Positions 3,581 to 42,168 of a stretch of DNA of 64,000 bases are shown here, piece after piece (position 1 is the stretch's first letter; every line of letters starts with the position of its first letter). The translations under genes and the position numbers were made by a program. The notes below the pieces were generated by a model that was not told the DNA's origin, did not search any database, and worked only from the letters and a program-made list of their open reading frames with translations. This stretch comes from Bacilli bacterium (GTDB taxonomy: Bacteria > Bacillota_I > Bacilli_A > ML615J-28 > CAG-698), in the NCBI GenBank assembly GCA_017962745.1, contig JAGCUR010000018.1:127088-191087 (forward strand), read 5' to 3'.

Positions 3581-6022
3581 ATGAAACAAATAATTTATGC
3601 ATCTAGCACTAAAGATATTAAAGAGCTAGAATTAGATAACCGAAAATTAGCGCTAGAGTGCGCAAAAGAAGCCATCGTTTTATTAAAAAATGATGGCATT
3701 TTGCCATTAAAGGATCAAAAAATTGCTTTGTTTGGAAGTGGTGCCAAAAAGACTATTAAAGGTGGCACCGGATCTGGTGAAGTAAATGAAAGATATAGTG
3801 TATCAATTTATAGTGGTTTACTAAATAAAGGCTTTATCATTACATCAAACAAATGGCTTGATGATTATGATTTAGAATATAGCGATGAACTAGCTATCTT
3901 CAATCATATGAAGATGAATCCATTCACGATCTTTAATGATGCAATCGGCCAGTTTTCATATCCATTTGGTAGAGAAATCAATGATACTGATATCGATGGT
4001 GAAACGGAAACTGCCATTTATGTAGCTAGCCGTCAAGCCGGTGAAGGTAAAGATAAAAGATTAGATAATGGTGATTATAATTTAGTTGATATTGAAATTA
4101 AGAATTTAGAATTCTTAAAGAAAAACTATAAATCAGTAATTCTTGTTATCAATTCAGGCTCAGGAATGGATTTATCGAATATTGAACACCTAGATTTAAA
4201 TGCCATTTTATATGTTAATGGTTTAGGTGAAGAAGGTGGAAATGCTTTTGCTAGCATTATTAAAGGGGAAGCATCGCCTTCTGGCCATTTATCATCTAGT
4301 TGGCCATTAAGTTATAAAGATATTCCAAACGGGGATGAATATAGTTATTTAGGTGATTTAGCTAAAGAAGAATATAAAGAAGATATTTATGTCGGGTACC
4401 GTTACTTTGATACTTTTAAAGTAAAAACTAGATATTGCTTTGGATACGGCTTATCTTACTCAGAATTTGAATGTAAATATCTTAACTTTAAAGTCGAAGG
4501 TGAGACAATCAGTTATGATTGCATGGTTAAGAATTTAGGACCATGTAAAGCTAAATACTTAGAGCAGTGCTATATCTCAATGCCAAATGGCAAACTTAAA
4601 AAAGAATATCGCCGACTCGTTGCTTTTAAAAAGACTAAAGAATTAGAAGTAGGCGAGCAAGACACTCTTCATTTAAGTTTTAATATTAAAGATGCAGCTT
4701 CATTTGACACATCTAAAGCAAGTTACATTTTGGAAAAAGGCTTATATTTAATTTGGAGCGGTAAAGATATCGATAACTCTAAGATAATTTATGGGGCTAA
4801 CTTAGATAAAACATATTATCCATATAAGTTAGCTAATCTAGTTAAACTAGAAGAAGATATTAAACTTTTAGAGCCAGAATTTAATAATGAATATAATATT
4901 CCTAGTAACCTAGAAATATTGAATATCAGTGGCGTAGAAGAAATTGAAGTAAGCTATGATTTACCAAAATATAAATTTAGTGAAGAAGTTAATAGATTAT
5001 TAGAAAAATTAACTACGAACGAAAAGATTGATTTATGTGTTGGTATGGGAATTAAAGGTATGATGGATTCAGCTGGTATTTATACCCCAGGTGCTGTTGG
5101 TAAAACAACAACTAGCCTATTTGATAAAGGTATTATTAATCTTAATCTATGCGATGGACCAGCGGGCTTGCGTATTTTAAGAGAATCAGCTTTAAATAAA
5201 AGACATAAATTAAAGATGGTTAAAGGAAACTGGCCAACTGGTATTATGGAAAGATTACCTGACTTTCTAGTTAAACCATTCTTAGCTAAAGAAAAAGATA
5301 ACCACTTATACCAATTTACAACGGCATTTCCGGTAGGAACTAGCCTTGCGCAAACATTTAATGAAGAGCTTTGCTGTGAAGTAGGTTATGCGATTTCTAA
5401 AGAGATGGCTGAATATGGCATTACTTACTTTTTAGGACCAGCTTTAAATATTCATCGTAATCCGCTGTGCGGAAGAAACTTTGAATATTATTCTGAAGAC
5501 CCAGTCTTAAGTGGCAAGATTGCAAGGTGCATAGTAGAAGGCATTACAAAAATTGAAGGTAACTATGCTACCATCAAGCATTTTGCTTGCAATAACGCCG
5601 AAGACAATCGTCAACATTCTAATAGTATAGTTTCAGAAAGAGCTTTAAGAGAAATATACTTAAAAGGATTTGAGATTTGTGTTAAAGGATCTAGGGTAGA
5701 TGCTTTAATGTCAAGCTATAATATTATAAATGGCGCTTATGCTGGTAATAGATATGATCTGAACCAACAAATCTTAAGATGCGAATGGGGCTATAGTGGA
5801 CTAGTTATGACTGACTGGTTTGAAACAGGAGGCGATAGGGCTAACGATGCAACTGCAATTGCAAGTGGCGTTGATCTAATCATGCCTGGTGCCAAAAGCG
5901 CTAAGAAGATGATTAAAAAAGGTCTAAAGAATGGTATGGTTAGTATTAATGATTTAAATAGGGCAGCAAGCTTAATCATTAAACAAATGTTAGAGTCTTT
6001 AGTTTATAAAAATATGGAGTAA
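3581..6022 (+). CDS. Glycoside hydrolase family 3 beta-glucosidase-like enzyme with permuted domain order
   Basis: The GEGKDKR...L motif of the GH3 C-terminal sandwich domain sits near aa 150. The KHF...GYSGLVMTDW nucleophile motif of the GH3 barrel is near the C-terminus. Confidence 0.75.
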   Translation: MKQIIYASSTKDIKELELDNRKLALECAKEAIVLLKNDGILPLKDQKIALFGSGAKKTIKGGTGSGEVNERYSVSIYSGLLNKGFIITSNKWLDDYDLEYSDELAIFNHMKMNPFTIFNDAIGQFSYPFGREINDTDIDGETETAIYVASRQAGEGKDKRLDNGDYNLVDIEIKNLEFLKKNYKSVILVINSGSGMDLSNIEHLDLNAILYVNGLGEEGGNAFASIIKGEASPSGHLSSSWPLSYKDIPNGDEYSYLGDLAKEEYKEDIYVGYRYFDTFKVKTRYCFGYGLSYSEFECKYLNFKVEGETISYDCMVKNLGPCKAKYLEQCYISMPNGKLKKEYRRLVAFKKTKELEVGEQDTLHLSFNIKDAASFDTSKASYILEKGLYLIWSGKDIDNSKIIYGANLDKTYYPYKLANLVKLEEDIKLLEPEFNNEYNIPSNLEILNISGVEEIEVSYDLPKYKFSEEVNRLLEKLTTNEKIDLCVGMGIKGMMDSAGIYTPGAVGKTTTSLFDKGIINLNLCDGPAGLRILRESALNKRHKLKMVKGNWPTGIMERLPDFLVKPFLAKEKDNHLYQFTTAFPVGTSLAQTFNEELCCEVGYAISKEMAEYGITYFLGPALNIHRNPLCGRNFEYYSEDPVLSGKIARCIVEGITKIEGNYATIKHFACNNAEDNRQHSNSIVSERALREIYLKGFEICVKGSRVDALMSSYNIINGAYAGNRYDLNQQILRCEWGYSGLVMTDWFETGGDRANDATAIASGVDLIMPGAKSAKKMIKKGLKNGMVSINDLNRAASLIIKQMLESLVYKNME

Positions 6023-26775: not shown

Positions 26776-28425
26776 ATTTAGACTACGTATGAACAGAGGC
26801 GCTATCAAATAACTGGGGGTTTTGATAAATAACCCTATAAAATAAGTGGGGGTCAAAAACACCTATAAAATTGATGGGGGTCGAAATAAGCCCGTTTCCA
26901 AATTAGGAAACGGGCTTTTTGTCAACCATTATAACTCATTTATGATAATTTCTAATTGGTGTATCCTTGTTTACAGCAAACATACACCTATTTCTAAATC
27001 TATCAAAGTTTTTATATCCATTGGCTGATTTAAGTATTATTTTAAGACGAGAATTGCAGCTTTCTATTTTTCCATTGGACAATCTTTTGCCTTTAACAAA
27101 CACGAATGAATTTTTGATTTCGTATTTCCATCTAATAATCATTTTTGTGAATTCATAGAATTCTGGTATACCTGAATTTGAGAATTTATATATTAAATCC
27201 TCAAAATCTTCCTCAAAATTATTGATATCGCAGTAATAATTAAACTCGCGATAATCTTCGGCTAAATTATATGCTTTTGTTAACTCTCCATCTATGGCTT
27301 TCAAGTATCCCAAAATTGTAAGTTTGTCCCATTTTGTTCTAATCTTATTAACGTTCCAAAGTTTATCTTCGAGTTTTGCATATGGTGTTTTAAAAAAGAA
27401 GTGAAACTTTTTAAGCATATAATAATACATATCAGCATTTTCTAATTTCGAATGACCCTTATCAAACTTTTTCATTGTTCTCAGTCTTACCATATCGACA
27501 GCTATGTTAAGGTGTTGTAAAACGTGAAATGAATCAACAGCAACTAATGCGTTTGGAAAAAGATCATTAGCAACTCTTTTATAAGAGTCCCACATATCCA
27601 TAACGATGTACTTAACGTTTTTTCGCTCATTTAAAGGTATTCTATATAAATTTTGAAGTAATGATAAATAATGCCTAGTTGGATAGATGTCAATAATATT
27701 ACCATTAAAGAAGTTAAGAAGAACACAGATATATTTATCCGGTTTCATATTCTTAGTATATATTTCATCCATGCATATTACTTCAGAAAGGGGCAATCTT
27801 TTACAGCTAACGTACTTATCGAATATATTAATGACAGATTGCGATGTAATTGAAAATAGTTTCGCAACACTAATGAAAGTAGCAGTATGGCTTCTAAGTT
27901 TTTCTAGTACTAGTAGATCGGTTTGCAAAGATACTTTTTCATCTTTTTGGCAAAACGGATTATTTTCATAGAAAATAGAGCCACACATCTTACATTTAAA
28001 TCTTCGAGATTTATATTTTAAAATACAAGGTTTATCTATTAATAAAGAATGCTTAATAGATTTAATTCTATAATCGTGTATGCAACAATCAGTACATCCA
28101 CATTTTGGGCAAGTAGCAATATTGTTCTTTAATACGACATAATAAATAATGGTATTGTTTTCCTTAATGAGCGTAGATTTATCTAAATCTATATTATAAG
28201 TTTCTAAATTTAGCAATTTTATGATATCATAATTCATGAAGACCTCCTTTTTTTTAATTGGTTGACACTCAATTATATCAAAAAAAGGTCTTCCTTTTTT
28301 TTACAAAAAAAGAGGCTATCAAGAGATGGGGGTCACCCCCAAGAAATTGATAGCCTATGCTTGACCCCCAAGAAATTTATATAACCTGAACAGTTAAGTG
28401 CTCGTTTATACGTAGTTTTTATTTG
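26776..28425 (-). mobile_element. ISL3-family insertion sequence. Ends are approximate: inner inverted repeats GGC(G)CTATCAA...TGGGGGT and outer ACTACGTAT are both seen.
   Basis: Single 433-aa ISL3 transposase ORF flanked by inverted sequence. Left end gaggcgctatcaaataactgggggtt (26794-26819); right end tgacccccaagaaattgatagcc (28337-28360) read on the other strand. Further outer ACTACGTAT/ATACGTAGT inverted pair at 26783-26791 and 28404-28412. Confidence 0.5.
26936..28237 (-). CDS. ISL3-family transposase
   Basis: N-terminal zf-ISL3 (CPKCGCTDCC...CKMCG) followed by the DDE region typical of IS204/IS1001/IS1165-type transposases, about 430 aa. Confidence 0.8.
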   Translation of the reverse strand: MNYDIIKLLNLETYNIDLDKSTLIKENNTIIYYVVLKNNIATCPKCGCTDCCIHDYRIKSIKHSLLIDKPCILKYKSRRFKCKMCGSIFYENNPFCQKDEKVSLQTDLLVLEKLRSHTATFISVAKLFSITSQSVINIFDKYVSCKRLPLSEVICMDEIYTKNMKPDKYICVLLNFFNGNIIDIYPTRHYLSLLQNLYRIPLNERKNVKYIVMDMWDSYKRVANDLFPNALVAVDSFHVLQHLNIAVDMVRLRTMKKFDKGHSKLENADMYYYMLKKFHFFFKTPYAKLEDKLWNVNKIRTKWDKLTILGYLKAIDGELTKAYNLAEDYREFNYYCDINNFEEDFEDLIYKFSNSGIPEFYEFTKMIIRWKYEIKNSFVFVKGKRLSNGKIESCNSRLKIILKSANGYKNFDRFRNRCMFAVNKDTPIRNYHK

Positions 28426-28510
28426 AATATAACTTATCCAATTGTAAAAAAATTACTTGCAAATTATGTGCAAACGAAGTAAAATTAAATTGTAAGAGGA
28501 GGATACAATT

Positions 28511-28786
28511 ATGGCAAATGTAAATGTAACCATTAGAATGGATGAAAATTTAAGGAAAGAAGCAGCTTTATTGTTTGATGATTTAGGAATTGGTCTTAAT
28601 CAAGCAATGACTCTTTTTGTTAAGCAGGCTGTAAGGGAGCAAAGAATCCCATTTGAAATTACGCGAAATATTCCAAATAAAGAGACATTAGATGCATTTA
28701 AAGAAATAGAATTAATGAAAGCTGGAAAGATTCCTTTTAAGGCATACGATAATGTAGATGAATTGTTCGAGGATGCCTTGAAATGA
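28511..28786 (+). CDS. dinJ: RelB/DinJ-family antitoxin (ribbon-helix-helix)
   Basis: 91 aa, MANVNVTIRMDENLRKEAALLFDDLGIGLNQAMTLFVKQ typical of DinJ. Promoter with TTGCAA/TAAAAT upstream. Confidence 0.75.
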   Translation: MANVNVTIRMDENLRKEAALLFDDLGIGLNQAMTLFVKQAVREQRIPFEITRNIPNKETLDAFKEIELMKAGKIPFKAYDNVDELFEDALK

Positions 28787-29058
28787 AATATAAAGTAGTA
28801 ATGTCTTCTAGGTTTTCAAAGGACCTAAAAATAATTGCTAGACGTGGATATGACTTGAATAAAATAAAGTACGTGATTAGTGAACTAGCAAATGGCAATA
28901 CACTTGATCCAAAATATAAAGATCACCAATTACAAGGAGATTATACTGGAAAAAGAGAGTGCCATATTTTACCTGACTGGTTATTGATATATGAAATAAG
29001 AGATAATGAGTTGTTGCTTTATTTAGCAAGAACCGGCTCTCATTCAGATTTGTTCTAA
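28783..29058 (+). CDS. yafQ: YafQ/RelE-family mRNA interferase toxin
   Basis: 91 aa, 4-bp overlap with the antitoxin. Conserved HxLxGxxxGxRExHI motif (DHQLQGDYTGKRECHI). Confidence 0.75.
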   Translation: MKYKVVMSSRFSKDLKIIARRGYDLNKIKYVISELANGNTLDPKYKDHQLQGDYTGKRECHILPDWLLIYEIRDNELLLYLARTGSHSDLF

Positions 29059-35634: not shown

Positions 35635-35699
35635 TTCATTTATAAAAATGAATCATTTTTTATTTACATTATTTAAATAATCATTTATAATGAACTAAA

Positions 35700-35964
35700 C
35701 TGATGAGAAAGAAATTAAACTAGTGATTATTTTATAGAGATTTAGGGATGGTGGAAACCTAATAAATGTAACTAGCAAGTGGGCTTTCAAGGGCGAACAG
35801 AAAAAGATATTATTCTTTAGTATGGGTGACGTGTTGTTTACGTTATAAAACAAGAAAAGTGATTGCTTTTCGTAAATGAGAGAAAGAAAACATTTGTTTT
35901 CTTTAATAAAGGTGGCACCGCAGGTTTATGACTTGTCCTTTAGATTTAGGATAGGTCTTTTTTT
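35700..35964 (+). promoter_or_regulatory. T-box leader (tRNA-sensing riboswitch) with terminator, upstream of trpB
   Basis: Conserved T-box sequence aaaGGTGGcACCgCagg at 35908-35924. This is followed by the terminator hairpin gacttgtcc-N10-ggataggtc plus T7 at 35930-35964. The 5' extent is approximate. Confidence 0.5.
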
Positions 35965-35991: not shown

Positions 35992-37218
35992 ATGAAGATT
36001 AATGACGTTGATTTTGAGACTTACTTGAAAAATTATCCGACGAAGGATGGCTATTTTGGCAAGTATGGTGGCAGTTTTATTAGTGATGATTTAAAGAAAG
36101 CTTTTAAAGAGATTAATGATGCTTATTTAACAATCTGTAAATCAGCTAAGTTTATTAGCGAACTACGTAGAATTAGAAAGGAATTTCAAGGTAGACCGAC
36201 ACCTTTATACCATTGTGAACGCTTATCACAAAGCGTAGGCAGTGGTAAAGTACAAATCTATCTAAAAAGAGAAGATCTTAATCATACTGGTGCGCATAAG
36301 CTTAACCATTGTATGGGTGAAGGATTACTGGCTAAATATTTAGGCAAGAAAAAGATAATCGCCGAAACTGGGGCTGGTCAACACGGGGTTGCTTTAGCTA
36401 CAGCTGCAGCATACTTTGGGCTTGAATGTGAAATTCATATGGGAATAGTGGATGTTAGGAAACAAGCACCAAATGTAGCGCGTATGAAAGTATTAGGAGC
36501 AAAGGTTATAGAAGTAACTGATGGGGAAGGTACGCTTAAAGAAGCAGTTGATTCCGCATTCATCAGTTATTCTAAGCAATATAAAGATGCAATTTATTGT
36601 ATAGGTTCCGTAGTAGGGCCTCATCCATTCCCAATGATTGTTAGGGATTTCCAAAGCGTTGTAGGCATTGAAGCTAGAGAACAATTCTTAGAAATGACTG
36701 GAGAACTACCGGATGTGATTACAGCATGTGTAGGTGGAGGCAGCAATAGTGCGGGTTTATTTATCCCATTTTTGAATGATCCAGTTAAGATTGTTGGCGT
36801 AGAAGCCTTTGGTAAAGGTAAAGATGCCAATTCCGCAAGCATTACTTATGGATCTGAAGGGGTACTTCATGGCTTTAACTCAATTATGCTTAAAGATGAA
36901 AAAGGTAATCCAGGATTAGCTTACTCAATTGCTAGTGGCCTAGATTATCCATCAGTTGGCCCTGAACATGCTTTCTTATATGATATTGGTAGAATTAGTT
37001 ATGAAGGCATAACTGATGAAGAAGCAATTGATGCTTTCTTCAAGCTTTCACGCCTTGAAGGAATTATTCCAGCATTAGAGAGTTCACATGCGGTAGCATA
37101 TGCAATTAAACTAGCAGGGCAAATGGATCACGGCTCAATTTTAGTCAACTTGTCAGGTAGAGGTGACAAAGATTTAGATTATGTTATTGAAAAATATGGA
37201 AAAAAATATATAATGTAA
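35992..37218 (+). CDS. trpB: Tryptophan synthase beta chain, stand-alone (no trpA adjacent)
   Basis: PLP-lysine motif [15 protein letters not shown] and GGGSNSAG. 408 aa. Not followed by trpA. Confidence 0.85.
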
Positions 37219-37228
37219 TAGTACGGGT

Positions 37229-37311
37229 GGGGCTATGGCGAAACTGGTAGACGCGTTACTCTCAGACGGTAATGTTTTAACGTGTGAGTTCGACTCTCAC
37301 TAGCCCCACCA
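37229..37311 (+). tRNA. tRNA-Leu (anticodon CAG) with long variable arm, CCA encoded
   Basis: Acceptor stem GGGGCTA/TAGCCCC, 3-bp D stem, anticodon stem TTACT/GGTAA with loop CTCAGAC, T arm GTGAG-TTCGACT-CTCAC, and a long variable arm. Confidence 0.7.
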
Positions 37312-37317
37312 AAATAA

Positions 37318-37391
37318 GCAGGTATGGTTTAATGGTAGAACATCTGCTTCCCAAGCAGAGGGTGCGGGTTCGATTCCCGTTACTTGCTCCA
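37318..37391 (+). tRNA. tRNA-Gly (anticodon CCC as folded by eye), CCA encoded
   Basis: Acceptor GCAGGTA/TACTTGC, anticodon stem TCTGC/GCAGA with loop TTCCCAA, T arm GCGGG-TTCGATT-CCCGT. Confidence 0.65.
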
Positions 37392-37400
37392 ATGATTTTA

Positions 37401-37432
37401 TTACGGTTGTTATTTTTAACCGTATTTTTTTT
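37401..37432 (+). terminator. Rho-independent terminator after the trpB-tRNA unit
   Basis: acggtt-N9-aaccgt hairpin followed by T9. Confidence 0.55.
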
Positions 37433-37866
37433 AAAAACCACGTATGATTCTTACAAGCAAGTAGCAAATCATGAGTACGTTTTCATAAAATATTCATTTA
37501 AAAATTAATGAAAATGGTGTAAAATGTTAATAACATAATGAATAAAAACATTATGTAGACAAAACAAAGTCTTTAAAACTCCAGACTACATATAAATATA
37601 GATCTGTATTATGTGGAAAGGAAGTGTTTAACTATGAAGTTCTTATATGAATTATTCAAAACAATGGCTGACGTTTTAATCATTTGTAACGTAAATATAT
37701 CTGATCCTAAATGTTAATAATGTCAGTTAATAAAAGCATAATTGTTTAAAGCGACAATTATGCTTTTTTGTATCTTTTTTAAGCGGAGAATGCGGCATCG
37801 ATATTGGTTACCTAGCGAGCTAAACTTGAAGGCATTTTGTAATAGTTGCCAAATGTCTTTTGTAAT

Positions 37867-37966
37867 TGTTGTTTGTTATTAATGCTTTTTTTGCTGTATC
37901 ATTTAAGTATAAGTAGTAAAAAGGAGAAAAGAAATGTTTAATCGCCTGAAATTTGATGAGAAAAAA
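37867..37966 (+). repeat. Direct repeat copy A (about 95 bp, about 90% identical to 39438-39534), a duplicated promoter-RBS-start region of the decarboxylase gene
   Basis: ttgtttgttatta..gcttttttgctgtatcatttaagtataa.ta.taaaaaggagaaaagaaatgttt.atcgcct.aaatt.gat.agaaaaa is shared by both copies. Confidence 0.8.
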
Positions 37967-38035
37967 GTTCATTTATTCTCTCATTTGGTATTCAGTTTTA
38001 CGAGAAAGATTGTAAAAACGAGAGAATCTATATAA
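37934..38035 (+). pseudogene. Truncated duplicate of the 5' end of the decarboxylase gene (33-codon ORF)
   Basis: MFNRLKFDEKK matches the MFDRLKFDKKN start of the 39503 gene. Homology then ends and a stop follows after 33 codons. Confidence 0.45.
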
Positions 38036-38123
38036 TAAATTATAAGCAAACAGGCGCAAATAATTGTTTTTTCTCACCAAAGGTGATATAATTGGTGCGT
38101 AAATAATAAGGATGGTGAGCAAA

Positions 38124-39170
38124 ATGAAGAAATTTAACTACTCAAACTTAAAAAATAAAACTTGGGATATCAAGATAATTAATTATTTGACTCAAATCCA
38201 TGAAGAAAAAGGTAAACAACAATTGTTTTTAAAACAAAAGCCTGAAGAATTAGAAAAGTTAGTTATTATTGCAAAAATACAAAGTACTGAATCATCTAAT
38301 GAAATTGAGGGTATTAGGACAACTAATACTAGACTAAAACAATTAGTGAATGAAAAAACAGCTCCTAAAAATAGAGCTGAAGAAGAAATTGCAGGATATA
38401 GAGATGCACTAAACATTGTACATGAAAATTTTGATTCGATACCTATTACCCCTAATTTTATTCTTCAATTACATAAAGTATTGTTATCTCATACATCAAC
38501 TTCATATGGTGGAAAATATAAGAATGTCCAAAATTATATTAGTGCGACAAATGAAAATGGAAAACCATGTACTTTATTCACTCCATTATCACCATTTGAG
38601 ACACCAATCGCAATGCAAGAATTATGCGATGAATACAATAGAGCTCTTGGTGAAGGAGTAGTAGATCCACTTATTTTAATTCCGCTGTTCATTCATGACT
38701 TTTTATGTATCCACCCTTTTATTGATGGAAACGGAAGAATGTCAAGATTATTAACGACACTGCTTCTATATCGTTCTGGTTATTATGTAGGAAAGTATAT
38801 ATCACTTGAAGCTAAGATAGCTAAGAATAAAGATTTATATTATGATGCATTATATGATTCTCAAATTGGATGGCACGAAAATGAAGATGACGCTACTCCA
38901 TTTATTAAGTATTTGTTAAGTACAATTGTTAGTGCATATAATGATTTTGAAGAAAGAGTAGAATTAGTGTCAGACAAGAGGTCTAGTATTGAAGTGGTAA
39001 GAATGGCAGTTAATTCTAAACTGGGAAAATTCACAAAGAGGGATATACTAGAACTAGTGCCTTCATTATCATCAACTAGTATTGAAAGAAGTTTAAAAGA
39101 ATTATGTGATTCAGGCGAAATAAGAAAAGAAGGCGTTGGTAAGTCAACATTTTATATTAGATTAAAATAA
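38124..39170 (+). CDS. Fic-family protein (AMPylator/adenylyltransferase fold)
   Basis: Canonical Fic motif HPFIDGNGRMSRLL, about 350 aa, C-terminal winged-helix-like region. Start set at the second ATG, which has better RBS spacing (38112 is possible). Confidence 0.8.
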   Translation: MKKFNYSNLKNKTWDIKIINYLTQIHEEKGKQQLFLKQKPEELEKLVIIAKIQSTESSNEIEGIRTTNTRLKQLVNEKTAPKNRAEEEIAGYRDALNIVHENFDSIPITPNFILQLHKVLLSHTSTSYGGKYKNVQNYISATNENGKPCTLFTPLSPFETPIAMQELCDEYNRALGEGVVDPLILIPLFIHDFLCIHPFIDGNGRMSRLLTTLLLYRSGYYVGKYISLEAKIAKNKDLYYDALYDSQIGWHENEDDATPFIKYLLSTIVSAYNDFEERVELVSDKRSSIEVVRMAVNSKLGKFTKRDILELVPSLSSTSIERSLKELCDSGEIRKEGVGKSTFYIRLK

Positions 39171-39371
39171 CATTCTTAACTTGGCTTTGAATCAAACCTG
39201 TTTTTAAAAACTTTTGTTGTATAAAATATGCATATCATACCTAAGTGTCACGTTTGTCACGCCAGTCACGTGTAACATAGCGTATATATCTAGAAATATG
39301 GCTTTAAGGGTGCACCTTCATCTATAAAAGGTGCATTGTGTTAACAAAACTTATTTTTCACATAATTAATT

Positions 39372-39400
39372 GACATCCTAGATTTTAGGATGTCTTTTTT
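39372..39400 (+). terminator. Rho-independent terminator after the Fic gene region
   Basis: gacatcctag-attt-taggatgtc hairpin followed by T6. Confidence 0.6.
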
Positions 39401-39437
39401 CAATAAATTTTAATAAATAATTTTACTAAAACTCATT

Positions 39438-39534
39438 ATTGTTTGTTATTAGGGCTTTTTTGCTGTATCATTTAAGTATAAATACTAAAAAGGAGAAAAG
39501 AAATGTTTGATCGCCTAAAATTCGATAAGAAAAA
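39438..39534 (+). repeat. Direct repeat copy B (functional promoter/RBS/start of the decarboxylase gene)
   Basis: See copy A. This copy continues into a full-length ORF. Confidence 0.8.
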
Positions 39535-40957
39535 CGAAGAAGAACGTCAAAGACAACTTGAATCATTACAAAATCGTTTATATGATGCAATTGCTGCTCA
39601 TAGTAAAATTAGAGAAACACCAATCTTTACGCTTCCGAATGAAGAAGACATCATGGAAATTGAAAAAATACAAATACCTGAAGAAGGGCGTAATGCTATT
39701 GAGGTTGAAGAAGAATTAATGAAATATGTTTTTTCAAAACAAGCCCTTCTTCAACATCCTCGTTTCTTTTCTTTTGTATGTTCGGCTGTCTCACCTTACT
39801 CAATTGCGGGATCGATCTTAACTGACCTTTATAACCCTAATGCTGGTTCATATAGCTTATGTCCTGGTGCTGGAATAATAGAAGAAAAGTTATGCAAATG
39901 GATGGGATCATGTGCAGGATACCCAGAAGATACATGCTCTGGTATATTCTTATCCGGTGGATCCATTTCTACCATGTCAGCTATCATCACTGCTCGAACT
40001 AATAAGCTAGGCGAATACGATTATCCAAAAGCGATGGCCTACCTTTCTGATCAAGCCCATAGCTCGGTAAGAAAAGCTTTAAGAATGTTAGGCTTTAGAA
40101 CTGACCAAATCGCGATACTACCATCAGATAGTGAATTTAAGATGGATGTAGAGAAGTTAGAAGAAGCGATTTTTAAAGATAGGTGTGATGGTAAAATCCC
40201 ATTTTTAGTTGTAGGTACCCTTGGTACAACTAATACAGGTACTATAGATCCACTTTCTAAAATTGGTGATATTGCTAAAAAATACAATTTATGGTTCCAT
40301 GTAGATGGAGCATATGGAGCATCATCACTAATATCACCAATTTACAGAAATGTATCAGCTGGTATCGAAAAATCCGATTCACTTACTTGGGATACTCATA
40401 AATGGTTAATGCAAACATATTCTTGCTCAACTCTTTTAGTAAAAGATAAACAAACGTTAGTTGATGCGTTTGTAGAACACCCAGAGTATTTAGAAGATGT
40501 GTCATCTACGGATCATATTGATGGCTGGGATAAAGGCCCAGAGATGAGTAGACCGCACCGCGCAATAAAACTATGGTTTACAGTTCAAGCTACAGGTACT
40601 CACTTGCTTGAAGAAATGATTGAATATTCATTCTATAATGCGAAAATTGTCTTACACGAGTTAGAGAAAAGAGATAATTGGCAAATTATCTCTAAACCTA
40701 GTTGCGGAACGATTAACTTTAGATATGCTCCAAGTGGCTTGTCACTAGAACAGTTAAATGAACTTAATCTAAATATTACTAAAGAAATCAATAAGACTGG
40801 TTTTGCCTATATTGTAACTACGACTTTAAATGAAATGAAAACTATTAGAATGTGTATGATTAATGCTAACTCTACAACTGAAGATATAATTGAAACAGTA
40901 GAGTTACTAGATAAAATAGCTAAAGAGTTATATATAGAAGTATTAAATAATAAATAA
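39503..40957 (+). CDS. Group II pyridoxal-dependent amino-acid decarboxylase (aromatic-amino-acid/tyrosine/DABA decarboxylase family)
   Basis: 484 aa with PLP-lysine in S..WDTHKWL and the fold-type I decarboxylase motifs (HVDGAYG). Confidence 0.75.
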   Translation: MFDRLKFDKKNEEERQRQLESLQNRLYDAIAAHSKIRETPIFTLPNEEDIMEIEKIQIPEEGRNAIEVEEELMKYVFSKQALLQHPRFFSFVCSAVSPYSIAGSILTDLYNPNAGSYSLCPGAGIIEEKLCKWMGSCAGYPEDTCSGIFLSGGSISTMSAIITARTNKLGEYDYPKAMAYLSDQAHSSVRKALRMLGFRTDQIAILPSDSEFKMDVEKLEEAIFKDRCDGKIPFLVVGTLGTTNTGTIDPLSKIGDIAKKYNLWFHVDGAYGASSLISPIYRNVSAGIEKSDSLTWDTHKWLMQTYSCSTLLVKDKQTLVDAFVEHPEYLEDVSSTDHIDGWDKGPEMSRPHRAIKLWFTVQATGTHLLEEMIEYSFYNAKIVLHELEKRDNWQIISKPSCGTINFRYAPSGLSLEQLNELNLNITKEINKTGFAYIVTTTLNEMKTIRMCMINANSTTEDIIETVELLDKIAKELYIEVLNNK

Positions 40958-40968
40958 AGGAGAAAGAA

Positions 40969-41637
40969 ATGTTTAAATTTTGGGGAGATGGCTCTGATTT
41001 TTCAAAAGAGTTAATTAGAAACATTGTTGTTAGAAGTACAGAAAACTTTAATTGGACTTTTATTTTTATTCTTGCAGTTGTATTTTATGTATACTGGTCA
41101 GAAATTCATAAAAAGAGATATGAAGTAGTCTTTGCGGGACTAGCTTTATATGGCGTACACTGGTTATATGAAATAGCTAACGCTATTATTGCTAAGATTA
41201 CCGGTTACCCTTTATGGGCAGTATCAAATGAATCAACTACATTTATTTTATTAATTGGTGTATGTTGGGAATTATCAATGATGTTTTCACTTGCTGGTAT
41301 CATTTCATTTAAAATGTTACCAGAAGATAGAAACAAAAGATATTTTGCTAAGGGTAAATTCAAAGGAATTAGTTGTAAATTAGTTGGTGCTATTGAAATG
41401 GCCTTACTATTTGCTTTATTTGAATCATTTTTAGCGGGAACTTCAAATCATTCATTCATTTGGGTATATAAATGGTGGGGTGTAATTCCAGTATTCTTTA
41501 CAACTTATATACCATTCTTCTTAGCTAGTAACTATGTACCTGATATGGATCCAAAGAAGAGAAAAATCTTCTTGATTGTAGAATGGGGATTAGTAGCATT
41601 ATTACTCGCAATTCTAATTCCACTAGGTATAATTTAA
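40969..41637 (+). CDS. Hypothetical membrane protein
   Basis: 222 aa, about 6 TM helices, strong RBS, follows the decarboxylase by 11 bp. Confidence 0.45.
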   Translation: MFKFWGDGSDFSKELIRNIVVRSTENFNWTFIFILAVVFYVYWSEIHKKRYEVVFAGLALYGVHWLYEIANAIIAKITGYPLWAVSNESTTFILLIGVCWELSMMFSLAGIISFKMLPEDRNKRYFAKGKFKGISCKLVGAIEMALLFALFESFLAGTSNHSFIWVYKWWGVIPVFFTTYIPFFLASNYVPDMDPKKRKIFLIVEWGLVALLLAILIPLGII

Positions 41638-41640
41638 TTT

Positions 41641-42168
41641 ATGAAAGTATTTAGATTAGTAAAACTAGCAAGTTATGTGATATTTGCGATTCTCATCTTT
41701 ATTTTTCGAGAATTCTTTGTTACTAACTTGAGATATTTCATCGGTGGTTTAATGATCTTATATGGTTCTTTAGCAATTCTAGAAATTGCTTTAGAAAAGA
41801 TTAAACCAATATATGATGGTCACGGCTTCTTATTTAACTCAATTGAAATATTACTAGGTTTAGTTATTTTAATTCTAATCAAAGAATATGCTACCGTTTG
41901 TGTAATGTGGGCGGTATGGTCAATCTTTAGAGAATCAATTGAATTAAGAGAAATATTAGCCAAGAAGCTACATTCCGTATTAGCCTTAATAAGTTTTATA
42001 GAATCATTAGCAGTAATTGTTTTATCAATACTATTATTAATGGAACCAGGTGAACATCATGCTTTAATTCATACATATTTACTATGTATAGAATTAATAC
42101 TAACAGCATCCATTCCCGTTTGTAATGGTTATATATTTAAAGATGAAAAAGAAGCTTTGGAAGAATAA
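41641..42168 (+). CDS. Hypothetical membrane protein
   Basis: 175 aa, about 5 TM helices, 3 bp after the previous gene. Confidence 0.45.
   Translation: MKVFRLVKLASYVIFAILIFIFREFFVTNLRYFIGGLMILYGSLAILEIALEKIKPIYDGHGFLFNSIEILLGLVILILIKEYATVCVMWAVWSIFRESIELREILAKKLHSVLALISFIESLAVIVLSILLLMEPGEHHALIHTYLLCIELILTASIPVCNGYIFKDEKEALEE

Follow-up and report, generated by a model that had tools for sequence, protein, structure and literature searches.

A Fic gene module inserted in codon 11 of a decarboxylase gene and flanked by two copies of its promoter and start in an uncultured rumen Bacilli bacterium

The window analysed here is a 64,000-nucleotide stretch of DNA from a Bacilli bacterium (GenBank assembly GCA_017962745.1, contig JAGCUR010000018.1, positions 127,088 to 191,087 of the forward strand), and its host is one clade of an uncultured rumen Bacilli species. 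The window carries a gene for a Fic protein between two direct repeats, R1 and R2, each of which contains the promoter and start of a gene for a pyridoxal phosphate-dependent decarboxylase. The comparison with related contigs (referred to by L numbers) showed that the Fic gene is part of a self-contained module inserted in codon 11 of the decarboxylase gene. We consider it probable that a one-off event, in which illegitimate and homologous recombination were combined, placed the module there. The features of the region are as follows.

37392..37864 (+): native upstream flank U, of which 37676-37864 is contiguous with the single repeat in L051
37865-37965 (+), 101 nt: R1, relic of the native decarboxylase 5' region, with promoter, ribosome-binding site and codons 1-10.7
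37934-38035 (+): 33-codon fusion open reading frame (ORF) MFNRLKFDEKKVHLF..., decarboxylase codons 1-11 plus Fic-leader read-through
37951..39365 (+): portable Fic module made up of a shortened leader, a promoter of its own, the Fic gene and the 3' element, 92.8-94.3% identity to L028-L035
37958..37965 (+): left recombination junction, 8-nt perfect microhomology GAGAAAAA
38064-38092 (+): the Fic gene's own promoter TTGTTT-17-TGaTATAAT, read from the sequence
38075-38097: palindrome CACCAA-N11-TTGGTG over the Fic -10 box, a putative operator, read from the sequence
38124..39170 (+): Fic gene, 348 amino acids (aa), predicted AMP-transferase of class II (SoFic-like), winged-helix region at the C-terminus, Pfam Fic, E = 3.7e-17
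39242..39364 (+): conserved ~122-nt non-coding element, nhmmer E = 1e-33 with a model from 34 copies
39366..39434 (+): 69-nt lineage-specific segment, found apart from the window only in L022-L024, L044, L045, L047 and L048
39372-39394: terminator hairpin insulating the decarboxylase, within the 69-nt segment, from the terminator scan
39435-39534 (+), 100 nt: R2, functional decarboxylase promoter, ribosome-binding site and start, a different allele
39503..40957 (+): pyridoxal phosphate-dependent decarboxylase, Pfam Pyridoxal_deC, E = 2e-70

Relatives at the strain level were recovered by exact-protein look-ups, and one of them, L051, carries the empty site, in which flank U is followed by one repeat copy and the decarboxylase without Fic. 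Positions 1-290 of L051 align to window 37676-37965 and positions 191-2635 to window 39435-41878. The decarboxylase of L051 is 97% identical to that of the window at the protein level and ~93.5% identical at the DNA level. Meanwhile, the occupied form, with R1, Fic, R2 and the decarboxylase in this order, was found in three further assemblies, namely in L022/L024, which is 99.9% identical to the window, and in L047 and L048, which are ~97% identical to it. R1 and R2 can be told apart at seven sites, and the single copy of L051 has the R1 state at each of them; its agreement with R2 is limited to 37868 and the C at 37889 within the T run. As L051 matches R1 at these seven sites and R1 adjoins the native flank, we take R1 to be the resident copy and R2 to be another allele. 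The relatives of the decarboxylase in the genome collection (L001-L021, ~80% amino-acid identity or less) are not syntenic and lack an upstream tRNA gene or Fic, and the homologues in L050 (86%) and L103 (82%) are likewise not syntenic and uninformative about an empty site. The nearest relatives that carry a name are metagenome-assembled genomes labelled Erysipelotrichaceae, Bacilli or Enteromonas. In short-read assemblies of several samples, contigs break between the tRNA-Gly gene and the 3' end of Fic (L025 ends at 37359, L027 at 37548 and L026 at 37578, and L023 starts at 39120). Such breaks fit assembly-graph tangles caused by a Fic module present in multiple contexts together with strain variation.

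The two repeats are identical in 91 of 101 aligned columns, with a single 1-nt indel within the T run, and their longest perfect blocks are 26 and 23 nt long. The sigma-70-like site is TTGTTA-18-TATCAT (37873-37902) in R1 and TTGTTA-17-TATCAT (39443-39471) in R2, and each copy continues with an AAAGGAG ribosome-binding site, an ATG and decarboxylase codons 1-10.7. The pair is unique in the window, where the 26-mer core common to R1 and R2 occurs twice against 0.00 occurrences expected (100 shuffles), so that the repeat is not a dispersed element there. Since the N-terminal peptide MFDRLKFD(E/K)K is kept in the decarboxylase orthologues of other species and their upstream DNA is unrelated, we regard R1 as a genuine partial duplicate of the 5' end of the decarboxylase gene.

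R1 is a leftover promoter and start, and it is decaying in the lineage of L047 and L048, where the last T of the -10 box has mutated (TATCAT to TATCAA). In the same two contigs, codon 12 of the fusion ORF behind R1 has changed from V to D and the substitution 38003 A>T makes a stop at codon 24. The ORF is therefore a by-product that is not conserved.

The left junction was examined in an alignment of the window with L099, L029, L066 and L036 as well as with L051 and R2. The octamer GAGAAAAA is common to the native decarboxylase gene (codons 9-11 in L051), to R1 and to the Fic leaders of other loci, and it sits within the 12-nt sequence TGA(T/G)GAGAAAAA, in which 11 of 12 positions match. Upstream of the octamer the window follows the decarboxylase, and downstream of it the window follows the Fic leader. 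The other Fic loci examined with enough upstream sequence, a set that includes diverged loci but not L041 to L043, keep ~55-70 nt more of the leader; the exception is L104, in which the left boundary differs. The extra leader holds a second palindrome of the CACCAA..TTGGTG type, located ~110 to 150 nt upstream, which was seen in the five loci read (L099, L029, L066, L036 and L105) and is loose in some of them (CATCAA..TTGGTG in L099, for example). This palindrome is lost in the window, where R1 replaces the extra leader exactly at TGA(T/G)GAGAAAAA. The edge of the inserted DNA thus falls inside R1, with the module homology beginning at 37951. Judged from the alignment, the left end is a microhomology junction that truncates the module, which is the signature of illegitimate recombination and not of a site-specific enzyme. 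On the right side, the module homology stops at 39365 and is followed by the 69 lineage-specific nucleotides and then by R2.

No recombinase, integrase or transposase ORF was found in 37392-39502. The only coding-strand ORF of at least 60 aa in this interval is Fic itself, the others being short or antisense within Fic. No terminal inverted repeats are present at the ends of the module. It does not have the make-up of an insertion sequence or a transposon, as inverted repeats and a transposase are missing and the duplication on either side spans 100 nt with no more than 90% identity.

The module is portable. Homologues of the Fic protein number in the thousands; the nearest 90% cluster is 97% identical to it and has 1039 member sequences, and one protein of this cluster is encoded, with identical sequence, at eight or more sites that have differing neighbours. 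The loci L028-L035 place the module in at least five unrelated contexts of other gut Bacilli, their flanks forming two left groups and three right groups in five combinations. The neighbours of Fic in these loci include Abi_2, a resolvase with a type I restriction-modification system, a RhuM-Fic protein, helix-turn-helix (HTH) proteins and an acetyltransferase/ABC operon. More distant Fic alleles (85-90%) occupy further contexts in L036-L043, L104 and L105. The only other gene common to the window and the Fic loci shows 46% protein identity against ~91% for Fic at the same locus (L039), and at the closest loci the Fic proteins are up to 97% identical. In phage and plasmid collections, the only matches were distant ones to the Fic coding sequence (60-71%), and no near relative of the module was present. 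An exact look-up of the window Fic protein gave no match, and neither a Fic paralogue nor a second copy of the island DNA is present in the window. By these comparisons, the module is foreign DNA that circulates horizontally.

The region around Fic also varies between strains. Between the window and L047, 3 of the 1023 positions in 38570-39592 are different, whereas the divergence is ~5% from 39593 onward; R2 is identical in both despite the divergence of the decarboxylase genes. Homologous exchange between strains is active in this region. Over 17 kb, 16 sites separate L022 from the window. All of them fall within Fic (equivalent to window 38348-39056), and 14 of the 16 lie within one 148-nt patch that carries the states of other Fic alleles. 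The patch contains the nonsense mutation G38952T, which splits Fic into parts of 276 and 67 aa. The nonsense mutation and the imported patch therefore indicate that Fic is dispensable and recombines with its relatives. Hypermutation of the kind produced by diversity-generating retroelements was considered for the polymorphism of L022 and rejected, as the changes show no specificity for adenine and 9-10 of those 14 sites agree with natural Fic alleles found elsewhere.

A self-contained Fic module that entered codon 11 of the decarboxylase gene through illegitimate recombination on one side and homologous recombination on the other is, in our judgement, the probable explanation of these data. 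On the left, codons 9-11 of the chromosomal decarboxylase gene would have been joined to the Fic leader at the 8-nt GAGAAAAA. On the right, the incoming DNA would have brought along, or become linked with, the present R2 as a different allele of the promoter and start of the decarboxylase. The pathway may have been homology-facilitated illegitimate recombination or, alternatively, integration by one crossover of a fragment that had closed into a circle at the microhomology. Its product would be the arrangement of flank U, R1, Fic, terminator, R2 and decarboxylase. In this arrangement R2 would keep the decarboxylase expressed behind the new terminator at 39372-39394. Since no terminator lies between the R1 promoter and Fic, R1 could still read through into Fic, and such read-through from a promoter of the decarboxylase type is plausible. 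An event with one homologous end fits best because a resident-type R1, a foreign-type R2 and a truncating microhomology junction occur together and no mobile-element enzyme is present.

Homology-facilitated illegitimate recombination was reportedly described by de Vries and Wackernagel in 2002. It resembles the arrangement in the window in having microhomology on one side and homology on the other, although in the window the process is deduced from the end product alone. In E. coli, one-ended homologous recombination and the integration of circularised fragments by single crossovers gave duplications of 109-950 bp of the homologous locus (PMC3240628), similar to the duplicated piece of the decarboxylase locus. 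A further likeness is to the displacement of effector-immunity modules of the type VI secretion system in Vibrio cholerae, where orphan pieces of the resident gene lie beside a new functional copy after the arrival of a module (PMC5361080). The genes and organisms there are of another class and the arrays build up repeatedly, whereas the window holds the result of a single event. Stubs of resident genes are reportedly left behind by such displacements as well.

Several observations weigh against this explanation. The match of R1 to L051 rests on seven sites within 100 nt. The empty site is represented by a single contig of 2.6 kb, which is ~6.5% divergent and ends short of the tRNA genes. The divergence between the decarboxylase genes of the window and L051 is uniform at ~6.5%, and a sliding window showed no import boundary in the available 2.4 kb. 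The donor arrangement (Fic module, 69 nt, R2 and decarboxylase without R1) was not found among the contigs examined, and the last protein look-ups (P0002 and P0003) gave other Fic contexts. As the donor configuration was not found, the right-hand homologous crossover is one that we infer from the repeats. For the proposed role of Fic, it has to be considered that one strain, L022, carries the nonsense mutation, that the protein scores 66.9 bits on the NCBIfam SoFic equivalog, far below the cutoff of 550, and that an anti-phage role rests on a hidden Markov model match and on neighbour genes.

The repeats could also have arisen by duplication in place. In this case, a template switch or an unequal exchange would have copied the 100 nt during the capture of Fic, R1 and R2 would have been identical at birth, and R2 would have gained its seven differences later by allelic homologous recombination with another strain. 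R2 does lie within the tract 38570-39592, which is nearly identical between strains with 5%-different decarboxylases and so has been exchanged recently. The missing donor with Fic upstream of R2 but without R1 speaks for such an origin as well, and the microhomology junction fits template switching equally well. However, a second microhomology switch would be needed at the boundary between the 69-nt segment and R2, where no similarity is visible. A further recombination step would also be required to account for divergence in the constrained R2 instead of in the relic R1. We regard duplication in place as unlikely.

It is very unlikely, in our view, that the occupied form is ancestral and that the empty allele of L051 was derived from it through a homologous exchange between the two repeats. 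Recombination between direct repeats of 100 nt is possible, and the L051 copy does agree with R2 at the two positions mentioned above, 37868 and the C at 37889. However, because the copy in the empty site equals R1 at all seven diagnostic sites through 37958, the crossover would be confined to the last ~7 of the 100 nt, and the longest perfect blocks common to R1 and R2 are just 26 and 23 nt long. No excision junction was seen in the strains close to the occupied ones, and the Fic module is demonstrably foreign and truncated at its junction. Repeat-mediated excision, which the earlier note on this DNA had suggested, is thus possible in principle and unsupported by the strains compared.

The rest of the earlier note, which had been made from the sequence of the window, fared better for the insertion than for its context. 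It had proposed that a Fic module was inserted between duplicated copies of the decarboxylase promoter, and this part stands. The duplicated promoter, ribosome-binding site and start with ~90% identity are real, their limits lying two to three bases from those it gave, and the 33-codon ORF downstream of the upstream copy (37934-38035), the complete Fic gene between the repeats, the terminator after it and the unit of trpB, tRNA-Leu and tRNA-Gly are all present as it described them. Its predicted empty site exists in L051, and the unusual non-coding stretch that it pointed out corresponds to the conserved 122-nt element. Its suggestion of a tRNA island did not hold, as described below.

The Fic gene likely starts with the ATG at 38124, and its product scores 63.4 bits with the Pfam family PF02661 (cutoff 24). 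The active-site motif HxFx(D/E)GNGRxxR is present as HPFIDGNGRMSR at residues 197-208. The inhibitory motif (S/T)xxxE(G/N), which the earlier note had proposed to look for, was found as SNEIEG at residues 58-63, N-terminal to the Fic core in the same chain, and it aligns with STESSNRLEG of the PDB entry 8uqu. This entry, an uncharacterised 'Fido domain' protein, is the closest solved structure (E = 1.4e-74), and the more distant matches are BtFic (3cuc) and the SoFic structures, with E ~ 1e-9 for Shewanella SoFic. The PADLOC model PDLC03963 SoFic matches residues 4-323 with its profile positions 9-327 of 361 (E = 3.3e-42).

The window Fic thus resembles SoFic in the same active-site motif, in the predicted N-terminal inhibitory helix motif of the same chain, in its length of ~350 aa and in the presence of a C-terminal domain. 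In addition, its relatives in other genomes are found among Abi, restriction-modification and GmrSD-type genes. SoFic-type proteins have been reported as single-gene abortive-infection defences, one member from E. coli having a downstream 47-aa antitoxin (PMC12249575). In contrast, the window Fic is only a distant relative of Shewanella SoFic and is not followed by an AS1-like small antitoxin gene; no such ORF flanks Fic on either side. By the profile match and the genes found beside its relatives, the window Fic probably acts as a single-gene toxin in abortive infection or against phages.

The Fic promoter and its palindrome are conserved even in the 85%-identical loci L036 and L099. The position of the palindrome over the -10 box suggests an operator through which Fic would regulate its own expression. 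The upstream palindrome, which the window has lost, and the promoter palindrome may form an operator pair for the C-terminal winged-helix domain. Palindromes are located at ~4786-4808 in L029 and at ~1357-1385 in L105. In L036-L040, whose Fic loci are 85% identical, an 89-aa gene without a Pfam hit (4636-4905, minus strand) diverges from Fic across the palindrome-bearing intergenic region, and it has no counterpart in the window.

In the conserved element at the 3' end of the module, GTCAC recurs four times with a period of 9 nt, alongside the palindrome GTATATAC and the doubled sequence AGAGGGTGCA with the (A)GGGTGCA motif; one 21-nt unit of this doublet is deleted in some copies. A core scan found the element in 51 metagenome contigs from human gut, rumen and digesters. 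Its copies are in L028-L035 and L052-L102, for example at 11161-11283 in L063 and at 3850-3970 and 6120-6240 in L029. The element usually lies 8-90 nt past the stop codon of unrelated, defence-like genes and in the same orientation as they do. Among the proteins that they encode are DEDDh exonuclease, DUF4160, DUF5677, Schlafen/AlbA_2, DUF4238, GmrSD_N, AAA_14/DUF4143 and two kinds of Fic proteins. Each locus has one or two copies of the element, in direct orientation when there are two, and homology between the loci starts or stops exactly at the element edges. A recurrent swap slot was seen directly behind an nrdG-like gene, where different cargo genes (one 158-aa gene and a 424-aa family) fill the space from its stop codon to the element between conserved flanks of 89-97% identity (L053 1-337 and 1618-3451; L058 7477-8497; L071 9208-11262). 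Some Fic alleles, namely those of L104 and L105, have no element.

Two other readings of the element were tried and rejected. As a structured RNA, its alignment folds at -6.25 kcal/mol with two covarying pairs, and the folds of single sequences are unremarkable. As a small gene, the 37-codon ORF with a TTG start seen in the window meets a stop in most of the other aligned copies. Neither Rfam nor the collections of phages and plasmids gave a match to the element, no copy of its core was present in IMG/VR, and looking up the core string in the literature brought one irrelevant hit.

The element invites a comparison with the attC sites of integrons, as varied single genes are each followed by a conserved element of ~120 nt in the same orientation and the homology between loci ends at its 3' edge. 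It differs from them in several respects. Reading of its sequence revealed no core sites of the RYYYAAC/GTTRRRY type. Its single-strand DNA folds reach ~ -14 kcal/mol (z-scores from -1.7 to -2.65) and contain just a local 9-bp hairpin, unlike the imperfect end-to-end hairpin of attC. Its primary sequence is highly conserved, unlike that of attC sites, and it does not form long arrays. The cargo linked to the element has its own promoter or follows the core gene nrdG. No integrase turned up, and no integrase search of the whole window was made.

A site-specific insertion of the Fic cassette directed by this element, in the manner of integron attC, is extremely unlikely to have produced the arrangement in the window. 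The succession of many different single genes before the element in one orientation and the exact break of homology at its 3' end would agree with such an insertion. However, both junctions in the window lie away from the element, the left one in the Fic leader and the right one 69 nt past the element, and no second element copy is present in the window. Moreover, the element lacks an end-to-end hairpin and covariation, and Fic copies without the element exist. Since neither junction coincides with the element, we conclude that it did not direct the insertion in the window.

Apart from this insertion, it is conceivable, though quite doubtful, that the element determines mobility or exchange in a so far undescribed system of single-gene cassettes in uncultured Bacilli of gut and rumen. 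Its repeats suggest, as our best guess, that it would act as a protein-bound recombination site or as a homology anchor. If this were true, the Fic module of the window would be a cassette that landed off-site by illegitimate recombination.

The features upstream of the insertion are as follows.

35694..35943 (+): T-box leader before trpB, context outside the insertion, Rfam RF00230 with 75.8 bits (under the gathering score, 93) and E = 2e-15
35992..37218 (+): trpB, tryptophan synthase beta subunit, context, NCBIfam TIGR00263 521.7 bits (cutoff 392) and Pfam PALP
37229-37311 (+): tRNA-Leu(CAG), ARAGORN and Rfam tRNA
37318-37391 (+): tRNA-Gly(CCC), ARAGORN and Rfam tRNA
37402-37424: terminator after tRNA-Gly, terminator scan

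The module shares with tRNA-linked islands the character of low-GC foreign accessory DNA near tRNA genes, two of which lie 0.47 kb upstream. An integrase-driven insertion of a genomic island at tRNA-Gly is nevertheless effectively refuted, since no integrase or recombinase ORF is present in 37392-39502, the last 26 nt of tRNA-Gly are found at one place only in the window when up to 3 mismatches are allowed, which leaves no tRNA-end att repeat, and the junction lies elsewhere, inside the decarboxylase coding sequence at codon 11. Between tRNA-Gly and R1, 37676-37864 (190 nt) is native, being present in the empty site of L051; the 284 nt nearest the tRNA lie beyond the reach of L051. As there is no recombinase, no tRNA-end repeat and no inverted repeats, and as 37676-37864 is native, the proximity of the tRNA genes is incidental.

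Flank U itself contains a 27-codon ORF, MKFLYELFKTMADVLIICNVNISDPKC, at 37634-37717 between tRNA-Gly and R1, with a good ribosome-binding site and no family match. It is followed by a strong hairpin terminator with a 15-bp stem at 37732-37767. The stretch with this ORF and terminator is conserved in L051 from 37676 onward. Farther away, ~9-11 kb upstream of the Fic insertion, the gene calls of the near-identical L024 show an ISL3-family transposase gene (window 26936-28237, minus strand) and a RelB/YafQ toxin-antitoxin pair (~28500-29050).

The best PDB match of the decarboxylase is 4obu (E = 9.4e-124), which we take to be the tryptophan decarboxylase of Ruminococcus gnavus (Williams et al. 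2014). By this similarity, the enzyme is probably a tryptophan or aromatic amino-acid decarboxylase. Its orthologues with 55-69% identity are located in unrelated contexts in other species, including metagenome-assembled genomes of Lachnospiraceae, Oscillospiraceae and Coriobacteriaceae. The T-box leader and trpB lie 2.3 kb from the decarboxylase gene, and the specifier region of the T-box probably contains UGG, as read by eye from the alignment. The region of trpB and the decarboxylase may be a tryptamine-producing locus.

The insertion of Fic is a new instance of a known process and a fairly ordinary acquisition of a gene. It provides a clean natural example, with both the empty and the occupied alleles known, of a toxic or defence gene planted in the start of a metabolic gene, where a duplication of 100 nt of promoter and start rescues the decarboxylase after the insertion. 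It places the defence gene under possible read-through from a copy of a promoter of amino-acid metabolism. It also illustrates how a SoFic-like gene in a rumen population undergoes presence and absence at the strain level, gene conversion and pseudogenisation. The wider value of the locus may lie in the 122-nt element, which is common to many defence-like genes of uncultured gut Bacilli and could mark an unrecognised route of gene exchange among them.

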